IMG/VR virus record: IMGVR_UViG_2700989400_000003
Strand: one strand, 5' to 3'
DNA length: 41,210 nucleotides
Source: a virus
Lineage: Duplodnaviria > Heunggongvirae > Uroviricota > Caudoviricetes
Positions 6,001 through 9,000 of the stretch are shown here, piece by piece (positions within the stretch are counted from its first letter, which is position 1; each line of letters starts with the position of its first letter). Position numbers: made by a program.

Positions 6001-9000
6001 AGGGTCGATCTTGTCCAGCATTCTTTGAAAGGCCTGAGCCTGCGCTTCCTGCTGGGCAGCAGCAAGTTTTCCGGCCTTCGCGGCTTCTCTCTGCGCTTGC
6101 GCAACCCCGCTCAATTCCGCTGTAGTTTCATTAAGTTTACGGGCAAGAAATTCATATTCTTCTTTATCAATAAGCCCTTTGCCGAAATATTTCTTTAATT
6201 CAGAATAGCGTCGACCGACAGTATCAATTGCGGCACCTACAGGATCAATAGCTGCCTTTAATTTTGCGAGCGCGTTCTTCTCATCTTCTGTTGCCCTGGT
6301 CACTTTCCCTGCGCTATTTGCAGCAGTTTCTCCGGCCTGCGTCATTTTGACTAGGGAGGAGGTCAGATTGTCAGCATTATTTTTCGCTCCAGTGCTATCA
6401 ATAATTATTGCAAGACGCGAAGTTTGCTCTGTCATTTAGTTACTCCGGACAAATAAAAAGCCCCGCTTGATAAGCGGGGCCAGACAACAGAGGAAAGGAA
6501 ATTATCAGAAACGATAACCAATACCGGTCATCCAAGTACCTACTTTCACATCGCCCAATTTGGTGTACTCATAGGATGCGTCAACTACCCAATTTGGTAC
6601 AGGATTAAACTGAATACCAGCACCATATACAACCGAAGTCTTGCTTGAAGAGTCAGAGTATCCCAGAATCGTCGCTTCAGCACGTCCATGCGCTACACCT
6701 AATAAGCCATATGCACTGAAGTAATCATTGAAACGATAGGCTGGACCGGCAGCTAGTGAATAGTAATCCAGTTCTCCATTTCCAATTTTAGAGCCTGCAA
6801 AATAATAATCGTATTCTTGATTTGTGTACGTAAATGAAGATGCAACGCCCCATTTATCATCCAGCTCATAGCGATACTTAATATTTACCCCTGAAGGATT
6901 CTCATCAAGGCTTTCTCCACCGGCTTTAACATGGCTTTGGGCATAACCAAGAGAAATAGTATTCTGCTTCAATTCAGCATTTGCAATGCCAGTTGCAAAC
7001 AAGGCTGAAGCGATAATGGTAGTCAACACTGCTTTTTTCATAAAATCACCGTCATTTCACAAATCATTGTTATAACAGCCAGAATTAATCTGGCTGGCAG
7101 CATTAAAATATCCACCACATTCGATAGTCAACTATCAATCTCTCATCAAACTATATGTGTGCACATTGTAATTCAGACAATTACTAAAAAATATTAAATT
7201 AATTAATCAATATCCCATCAACAGTTTTGGATTGAGAAACATACTGATCATCCAGCGCAAAGATCACTGCTTCAAATTCATCACTATCTATCAATATTGG
7301 GTGTGCTTTTAAGTAGTCGTGCACGTCAGATATTGATAAAGGCAGCGGAACCCCGGACATGCCCGCATAACGCCTGGAACGAGACATTACTGAGTACGCA
7401 TACAATAACTCACGGACAACGGGGTCTATTTCTGGCTCCGGTATCGGTGGCAACCTGAGTTTTTCTCTCGTCCACCTTGCCTTTTCCCCCTTTTCGCCCC
7501 CGAACTCCGATAACCACCGCTGGGCGGCTATGGCTTTTTTATCGTATCCTGCTTCTGCTGCTCTTTTCCCTGGGCGATGCTGGCGGCTTCAGCAAGAATT
7601 TGCCAGTACAACTCTGGATTCTGCTTGAGCAGCGTGGCCCCTCGCTCTGGTGTATATTCCAGCGCGACCTCAACCCCATCCACCAGTTCACCAACCCCTT
7701 TCCAGTCTTTCAGTAAATAACGAGCGGCGTTATCAATAAGTAAATCATCAACAGAATCCACCTCGTCGACCTTTGCAATATCAAATTCTTTCGTTCCGAC
7801 ATGCAAACTGGCATCCATTTTCTCTATGTGACGACGGATTAATGCATTACGGGAGCGATACTGATCGTTATCGCTGCTTGCCACCAACAGTTTTAACCCA
7901 TCTACAGGTTTTAAGTCCTTCATTGGCGTAAACCAGCGTTCTCCACCGATGATAATTTTCTGATTAAGAATAAACATCCATAACCTCATTCAAAACGTCC
8001 CTGTAGTGCAACACCACAGGGGAAATAACGGAAAATCAACTAATCGCCTCAGCACTGGCTTTTGCGATCACGGCAGCCGGAGAGGCTTTTTTTCTGGTTA
8101 TCGTAGGCGCTTCATCTGCTGCGGTAATACTCAGTTGAACCTGGATAATGTCGGTATTACCACCGTCAGGCCATTCACCTGACACCTGAACCTTCGGAAA
8201 ACTGAAAGTGTATGCCCCCTCTCCATTCGAAAGCGTGAAGCTGAACGGAACTGTTTCTCCAGTCAGTGTTTTACTCCAGATTTCCCACGCAGCTTTAGAC
8301 CATGAAAGCGTCACCGTACCGGACGGTGTAAAGGTAGTAGGAATATTTGCTCCTGCATAAGGCGAGCCAGTCCCGATACAACGCTGAGTCTGGAGTTTGT
8401 TATCGAACTGAATATCAAAACTGTCGATACAAAAACCGTTACCTCCGGCAACACCATTCAGGCTTACTGCTGAAACCTCCTTAAACGAATAACGTAGCTC
8501 TCCTGCGCTATCCACAGGTTCGCCTGTGATAAAATTCGTATCATCGGCCTTTGATTCCCAGTCCAGCCCGGCAAAGGTTACGGTCGCCGTAATATCACCA
8601 TCGTTAGGGATCTGCATTTTCCATGACCCCACCTGCGCTCCTCTGATGACAGAGGCAATTCCGACATCGGACGCATAGGTCGCCAGAGAAAATGTTATTC
8701 GCTCATTTCCCATTGTCAGAGAATCGCCTGACCATTCCGCGCCGAAACAGGATGCAAGAAAATCATCATGTTGACCCCAGCGAAATTTGGTACCAACATC
8801 ACCGCCAACATCCACAGTGCCAGGCGTTGCCCCCTGAGCCATCCGGGAGCCGCCGATCTCATTATTTTCGCCTTTATTCTGGGTGGGTTTTACTCCCCAG
8901 CTTGTGCGTTTTAATAAACTCCAGTCACCACTTGCTGGCGTGGTGCCTGCAACTGTCTCCCGGATAAATGCCGAGATAACCTTTGCACCTGAACTCACAG

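Follow-up and report, generated by a model that had tools for sequence, protein, structure and literature searches.

A conserved A_AAA_AAG heptamer as the likely -1 frameshift site of a G/GT-type tail assembly chaperone gene pair in a lambdoid prophage of Escherichia coli

The G and GT proteins of phage lambda are the closest described model for a gene pair in which a tail assembly chaperone gene is followed by an extension open reading frame (ORF) in the -1 frame. The function and the wide conservation of the lambda pair have been described (PMC5009743), and the G/GT class was defined by Xu, Hendrix and Duda in 2004 (summarised in PMC5009743). Here we analyzed such a gene pair in a 41,210 nt stretch of viral DNA (IMG/VR record IMGVR_UViG_2700989400_000003; hereafter the window), which carries a lambdoid E. 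coli prophage and matches the chromosome of E. coli strain E21845/O/A at 100% over the 901 queried bases (7150-8050). It is highly likely that the two ORFs, encoding a G-like protein and a T-like extension, form a G/GT-type pair, i.e. a chaperone gene and a -1 extension ORF expressed by programmed frameshifting. The main -1 slip site is likely the A_AAA_AAG heptamer at 7540-7534 rather than the G_GGA_AAA heptamer upstream of it, which had been proposed when the sequence was inspected alone.

The efficiency of slippery heptamers in E. coli is well documented. Sharma et al. (2014) measured all 64 heptamers with an assay background of ~0.04-0.07% and found X_XXA_AAG heptamers to be the most proficient, the top motifs being A_AAA_AAG, G_GGA_AAG and C_CCA_AAG (PMC4066793, Table S3). 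A_AAA_AAG shifted at 0.291% without a stimulator, at 4.26% with the stimulators of the insertion sequence (IS) IS911 and at 39.0% with the IS3 pseudoknot; the corresponding values were 0.277%, 3.80% and 43.0% for G_GGA_AAG and 0.117%, 0.51% and 17.0% for G_GGA_AAA (PMC4066793). G_GGA_AAA is 2.5- to 8-fold weaker than A_AAA_AAG, and it is cited as good in eukaryotes but inefficient in E. coli (PMC4066793). Within E. coli genes, A_AAA_AAG is strongly avoided (z -10.1), in contrast to G_GGA_AAA, which is over-represented (z +5.6) (PMC4066793). A_AAA_AAG was also placed among the most efficient E. coli motifs in another study (PMC3082878). The heptamer GGGAAAA of the window had been called close to GGGAAAG of lambda; this is correct by spelling, but the difference between A and G at the last base matters in E. 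coli.

The locus has the layout of the G/GT class, with two overlapping ORFs on the same strand between the tube and tape measure genes, interrupted only in this lineage by an Ail/Lom insertion. On the minus strand the order is tail tube gene, G-like gene, -1 ORF, Ail/Lom gene and tape measure gene (Table 1). The G-like protein alone matched PHROG 313, 'tail assembly chaperone', with E 1e-46 over profile positions 13-149 of 258, and the product of the -1 ORF matched PHROG 1189 with E 7e-31. When the two were joined at A_AAA_AAG, the fusion gave a single continuous match to PHROG 313 (E 3e-51) that extends over positions 13-248 of 258, and this profile appears to cover both the G and T parts. 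Neither the local copy of Pfam-A nor NCBIfam yielded a family for G, T or the fusion. Homologues carry PF27119, which is not a lambda G/T family. BLASTP gave no alignment to lambda G and an E-value of 19 for lambda T, which bears out the earlier remark that the gene looks unrelated to lambda G. The AlphaFold2 model of the G-like protein, based on a 14-sequence alignment, had a mean predicted local distance difference test score (pLDDT) of 44 and a predicted template modelling score (pTM) of 0.40, too poor for a fold search.

The G-like protein is 149 aa long from ATG 7977 or 153 aa from the upstream ATG 7989. ATG 7977 is the likelier start because it is preceded by a GAGGT Shine-Dalgarno (SD) sequence 5 nt upstream and because the N-terminus that it defines (MFILNQKIIIGGERWF) is conserved; homologues begin with MFILNQ or MLII, in agreement with a start at 7977.

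Two heptamers in the register X_XXY_YYZ are present near the end of the G-like gene. The upstream one, GGGAAAA (site A, 7570-7564), is read in the zero frame as CA G GGA AAA GAG, and its AAA codon (7566-7564) lies 12 codons ahead of the TAG stop codon, exactly as the sequence-only reading had described. That reading was also right that the -1 frame is open to 7199: it runs from 7588, behind TGA 7591-7589, to TAA 7201-7199, and overlaps the G frame by 19 codons. The downstream one, AAAAAAG (site B), stands in the context AT A AAA AAG CCA TAG, 30 bases downstream of site A and within the segment to which the frameshift had already been assigned. A shift at either site would give fusions of equal length (259 aa from ATG 7977, 263 aa from ATG 7989), whose sequences would be the same except for the 10 residues encoded from one site to the other.

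The frequency of such motifs in the window gives little weight to the presence of one of them. The window contains 11 copies of GGGAAAA where 8.6 are expected and 17 copies of AAAAAAG where 13.7 are expected. In its ORFs of at least 90 aa, the rate of in-register X_XXY_YYZ heptamers is 0.0055 per codon, which corresponds to ~0.1 expected per 19-codon overlap. The heptamer at site A by itself is no more than chance, and thus its significance must come from context and comparison.

The comparison set comprised 219 related loci drawn from annotated phages, from E. coli genomes, from GTDB (one genome per species) and from IMG/VR, and 217 of them could be anchored on the conserved motif YW..E....IA.GK. 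These represent 103 distinct junctions, and wobble positions were analyzed on 75 distinct sequences. Site B was AAAAAAG in 209 of the 217 loci and in 98 of the 103 distinct junctions. Seven loci (four distinct junctions) have GGGAAAG at this position, and the sole other case is a truncated locus (L211) whose sequence diverges completely at that point. In the GGGAAAG variants three bases have changed together, from GTA AAA to GTG GGA, so that Lys is replaced by Gly and the X_XXY_YYZ motif is kept. The base preceding the two slip codons also stays A across the replacement of Val (GTA) by Ile (ATA). At site B, both the AAA and the AAG codon have a third-base entropy of 0, compared with ~0.9-1.0 for Lys codons elsewhere; all 75 sequences share this AAG, while the other Lys codons in the alignment alternate freely. 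Judged from these alignments, this is the pattern expected from selection on slipperiness and not from selection on the protein sequence alone. Among diverged homologues a slip site is kept in the case of A_AAA_AAG but not in that of G_GGA_AAA.

G_GGA_AAG, the heptamer of lambda, was observed at site B in L013, L181, L193 and L201, which come from a Raoultella genome and IMG/VR contigs; VKKP becomes VGKP in these loci.

Conservation of the T-like sequence (AIAAQRWLSEFGGEKGEKARW...) among Escherichia, Citrobacter, Raoultella and Klebsiella begins at the codon immediately behind site B, and the conserved frame starts with A-I/L-A/E-A-Q-R/K-W... Substitutions in the T frame are biased to the third position, with 21/8/43 substitutions at the first, second and third codon positions in comparison with the Rac type and 40/26/72 in comparison with a Klebsiella prophage. 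These counts point to purifying selection on the T frame from the codon right after the heptamer. In the alignment of the T frame across the family, no start codon is conserved within the initial ~57 residues. The closest candidate is TTG 7453, which CAGG abuts without a spacer, and no SD-like sequence was seen there.

The two-frame arrangement extends to distant relatives. In a tblastn search against 50,697 phage records, every match was divided between two frames, and this held down to 30-32% identity. Acinetobacter phage Acba_11 carries lambda's own heptamer, G_GGA_AAG, in register, and in Pseudomonas phages Aurca01 and PSA-2T the place of site B is taken by G_GAA_AAG.

The beginning of the T frame also contains G and A runs (GGGGGCGAAAAGGGGGAAAAGG, 7475-7500, minus strand), including another GGGAAAA at 7488-7482. 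The length of the G run differs among the relatives, L070 and L052 being the loci concerned. In L070 the run is shorter by one G, so that T ends after 37 codons; this loss is either a mutation or an assembly error. A 240 aa protein of E. coli (P0010) is a natural in-frame G-T fusion, in which ...LAEA is joined to GYDKKAIAAQRW... at the junction. Its structure is consistent with a deletion between two GCAGAAGCAG repeats of a Rac-type sequence that fixed T in frame. A prophage of the P0010 type would lack free G and produce the GT-like form alone.

The proposed expression of the pair is as follows. Most ribosomes would stop at the TAG codon and release the 149 aa G-like protein. A few per cent or less would slip by -1 on A_AAA_AAG at site B, where the tRNAs on AAA and AAG would re-pair to AAA and AAA, and these ribosomes would read on to the TAA codon at the end of the T frame. 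The product would be a fusion of ~259 aa that consists of the G-like domain and the 111 aa T-like domain. If the roles are as in lambda, the tape measure protein would be bound by the G part and the tube protein brought in by the T part, and neither would become part of the virion (PMC5009743). A low and fixed ratio of the two products would be set by the slip frequency. This proposal draws on the register of the heptamer, the open frames, the synteny and the family-wide conservation of both the site and the T frame, all of which are directly observed.

The programmed -1 shift might instead occur mainly at site A, as originally proposed, and yield the junction ...IAQGK-RAAEAGYDKKAIAAQ... Besides its register and the frame that is open across it in this lineage, this possibility can appeal to the fact that G_GGA_AAA shifts above background in E. 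coli, both alone and with the strong IS3 pseudoknot, and that it is found in some IS elements (PMC4066793). The relatives argue otherwise. Site A is GGGAAAA in only 19 of the 217 loci and 8 of the 103 distinct junctions; the position is GGGTAAA or GGGTAAG in 182 loci, and the remainder are GGGCAAA, GGCTAAA, AGGGAAA, GGGGAAA and similar. A GGT Gly codon, present in about 1000 E. coli genomes, puts TAA or TAG in the -1 frame, so that a shift at site A would terminate at once, and the -1 frame is closed exactly there (GGG TAA or TAG) in 84 of the 103 distinct junctions. Among the 75 distinct sequences the Gly codon is GGT in 56, GGC in 8, GGA in 7 and GGG in 2, and the Lys codon is AAA in 49 and AAG in 26, suggesting that both wobble bases behave as neutrally drifting sites. 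With the frame closed and the wobble bases drifting, the -1-frame peptide between the two heptamers is not conserved. The lower efficiency of G_GGA_AAA and its over-representation in E. coli genes point in the same direction, and no structure was found at a suitable distance downstream of site A. A main shift at site A is thus very unlikely. Site A is very probably not the functional slip site but a synonymous lineage variant, or at most a minor secondary site from which traces of another isoform may arise in this lineage alone. In a stronger form of this idea, the change of GGT to GGA in a rare lineage opened a second usable slip site 30 nt upstream, giving two GT isoforms that differ in 10 junction residues or a higher GT:G ratio, while CAGGA and the low synonymous variation around it may mark a dnaX-like 5′ stimulator; we regard this as unlikely.

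Two further explanations would dispense with slippage of the ribosome. If there were no recoding at all, the -1 ORF could be translated from an internal start, or the gene pair could be decaying after a frameshift mutation. In some relatives gene callers indeed report no more than an internal ORF of 66 aa, and in the identical RefSeq genome they report none; the Rac copy in K-12 belongs to a defective prophage. Against this, the two-frame layout is present in more than 200 loci from phages and prophages of Escherichia, Citrobacter, Klebsiella, Raoultella, Erwinia, Pseudomonas and Acinetobacter. The purifying selection suggested for T begins right after the heptamer, ~57 residues before any conserved Met, no SD-like sequence was seen at the nearest start candidate, and the frame junction has kept a slippery heptamer despite a triple substitution. 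On grounds of conservation, independent translation or a pseudogene is therefore rejected as highly improbable. The frame could also be changed by RNA polymerase slipping on the A run, since site B holds six consecutive A residues and homopolymer runs can give rise to transcriptional slippage (PMC5009743). The four distinct family members with GGGAAAG have only three A residues and still carry a tandem-slip heptamer, and this replacement fits ribosomal rather than polymerase slippage. Appreciable transcriptional slippage in E. coli needs runs of ~8-9 A or more, and six are shorter than this. Given the short A run and the GGGAAAG replacement, we rejected transcriptional slippage as extremely improbable.

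The two parts of the sequence-only reading thus fared differently. A G-T-type frameshift is upheld by the synteny, the match to PHROG 313 and the conservation of T, whereas GGGAAAA as its site gave way to the conserved A_AAA_AAG. A slippery-looking heptamer in the right register was not sufficient, and the relatives moved the site by 30 nt to the textbook A_AAA_AAG.

The surroundings of site B contain candidate stimulatory elements. The pentamer CAGGA is invariant in all enterobacterial junctions and in 75 of 75 distinct sequences; its Gln codon is always CAG in these 75, while other Gln codons alternate between CAG and CAA. Based on this invariance, CAGGA could be an SD-like 5′ stimulator. 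Phage G/GT sites are not known to have a dnaX-like 5′ stimulator. Among the 75 distinct relatives, the codons between the two heptamers (GAG CAG CAG ... CAG GAx ACC; 7541-7563, minus strand) show synonymous variation well below that of the rest of the 3′ end of the gene. A hairpin is predicted immediately downstream of site B (Table 1).

Several points weigh against slippage at site B as proposed here. AGGA is located at 6 nt, the short end of the known -1-stimulating spacings; the window for SD-like stimulators is 6-17 nt upstream (PMC4066793). The predicted hairpin has a folding energy of -15.3 kcal/mol, yet its z-score against shuffled sequences is only -0.4 to -0.8, and single-sequence folds overall gave -0.4 to -1.6. 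RNAalifold on 74 distinct family sequences returned essentially no consensus structure, and a scan of 7150-8050 gave no Rfam match at E up to 1. Site A is usable in this lineage, being in register in an open -1 frame, so that a contribution from it is possible. Erwinia phage Gungnir39 (L221, ~1960-1995), which is 55% identical, has no canonical heptamer and reads GTC GCA AAG TAA (C_GCA_AAG TAA), meaning that not every member of the wider family has a perfect tandem-slip motif. Gungnir39 still has an A_AAG Lys codon beside the stop codon and may use single-tRNA slippage on A_AAG there. Finally, we infer that slippage takes place in this prophage, how efficient it is and which binding roles G and T play.

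Table 1. Features of the G/GT-type locus and its neighbours in the window
Feature	Coordinates	Strand	Remarks
Tail tube (major tail) protein gene	8036..8998	-	Directly upstream of G; Pfam Phage_tube_2 E 5e-32; RefSeq 'phage tail tube protein'
G-like tail assembly chaperone gene, zero frame	7528..7977	-	TAG stop 7530-7528; ydaY homologue; PHROG 313
G_GGA_AAA heptamer (site A)	7564..7570	-	In register; lineage-specific
AGGA (within CAGGA), candidate SD-like 5′ stimulator	7547..7550	-	6 nt 5′ of site B
A_AAA_AAG heptamer (site B), proposed functional -1 slip site	7534..7540	-	Zero-frame register, three codons before stop
Predicted hairpin CCAUAGCCGCC-CAGC-GGUGGUUAUCGG	7507..7533	-	0 nt 3′ of site B; doubtful significance
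T-like extension, -1 frame	7199..7534	-	111 codons after slip at 7534; TAA 7201-7199; PHROG 1189
Ail/Lom-family outer membrane protein gene	6505..7041	-	Pfam Ail_Lom E 3e-27; between T and tape measure gene
Tape measure gene	3202..6435	-	Downstream of G/T; Pfam TMP_2, Tape_meas_lam_C, TMP_4; PHROG 24

The Ail/Lom gene is a moron that stands outside the frameshift device. The Rac-type relatives lack it at this position and have the tape measure gene immediately behind T. Near 7235 the C-terminal part of T loses its homology to these relatives, indicating that the final few codons of T were replaced along with the insertion. Elsewhere in the window, a G_GGG_GGA heptamer at 10181-10187 (minus strand) is in register, two codons ahead of the stop that ends ORF 10178-10573, and the -1 frame at this place is the next gene (9795-10181). 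This site has the appearance of a common four-base overlap between genes and not of recoding.

The family is common in E. coli. ydaY-like relatives were found in 1071 of 5426 complete E. coli genomes, about a fifth, and 11 of these at 99% identity or more; the family is also present in many Klebsiella and Citrobacter prophages. In RefSeq, the identical genome has a 119 aa 'hypothetical protein' (L002, 5164-5523) and the T ORF is unannotated, and in the relatives the gene is named 'YdaY' with T either unannotated or given as a short hypothetical ORF. Ribosomal slippage was unmarked in all phage and genome feature tables examined, and no product name among the tblastn matches suggested a joined coding sequence. 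The feature is of a known kind that follows the textbook G/GT principle, and only its annotation is missing. The main value of the present analysis lies in this annotation and in the correction of the slip site; it adds nothing new biologically to the G/GT principle.

The direct homologue of the G-like gene is ydaY in the Rac prophage of E. coli K-12, with ~86-88% DNA identity and the same gene order. The junction A_AAA_AAG CCA TAG is identical, as is the T frame. In contrast, the Rac type has GGGTAAA where the window has GGGAAAA, so that site A does not exist there, and the window differs further in the C-terminus of T and in the Lom insertion. In K-12 the Rac prophage is defective and its tape measure gene is truncated, ydaY lying upstream of the tape measure remnant ynaA. 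ydaY was reportedly named by Gurvich et al. in 2003 (EMBO J) as a candidate for utilised frameshifting at A_AAA_AAG. A full-text literature search, whose searchable text did not include Gurvich et al. 2003, found no paper on ydaY frameshifting.

A similar ending is found in the chaperone gene ECs_1801 of the lambdoid prophage Sp9 of E. coli O157 Sakai, which reads AG A AAA AAG TAG and is likewise located between the major tail and tape measure genes. It was classified as a true frameshift cluster, A_AAA_AAG_25 (PMC4066793, Table S4). ECs_1801 (124 aa) was rejected as a member of the same family, as it has no BLASTP similarity to G of the window.

The heptamer A_AAA_AAG and the logic of tRNA-Lys re-pairing are shared with dnaX, which produces gamma and tau, and with the transposases of the IS3 family (PMC3082878, PMC4066793). 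As dnaX-like we counted a conserved upstream SD-like sequence together with a conserved stable structure 5-9 nt downstream. The upstream AGGA and the downstream hairpin are reminiscent of the 5′ SD-like sequence and the 3′ stem-loop of dnaX, as candidates only, the hairpin being insignificant and unconserved. The SD-like spacing in dnaX is ~10 nt, in comparison with 6 nt for AGGA here. The outcome would resemble that in the IS elements, where frameshifting yields a longer fusion, and differ from that in dnaX, where it yields the shorter product.

Lambda G/GT, with its heptamer G_GGA_AAG, resembles the window in its location between the major tail and tape measure genes and in having a -1 ORF without a start of its own. 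The upstream ORF encodes 140 aa in lambda and 149 aa in the window, the heptamer lies seven and three codons before the stop, respectively, and the fusions are ~260-280 aa long. The two loci differ in that neither G nor T shows detectable similarity between them, in the heptamer A_AAA_AAG of the window and in the Ail/Lom gene inserted there. The tube protein of the window belongs to the Phage_tube_2 family, while its tape measure protein is lambda-like.

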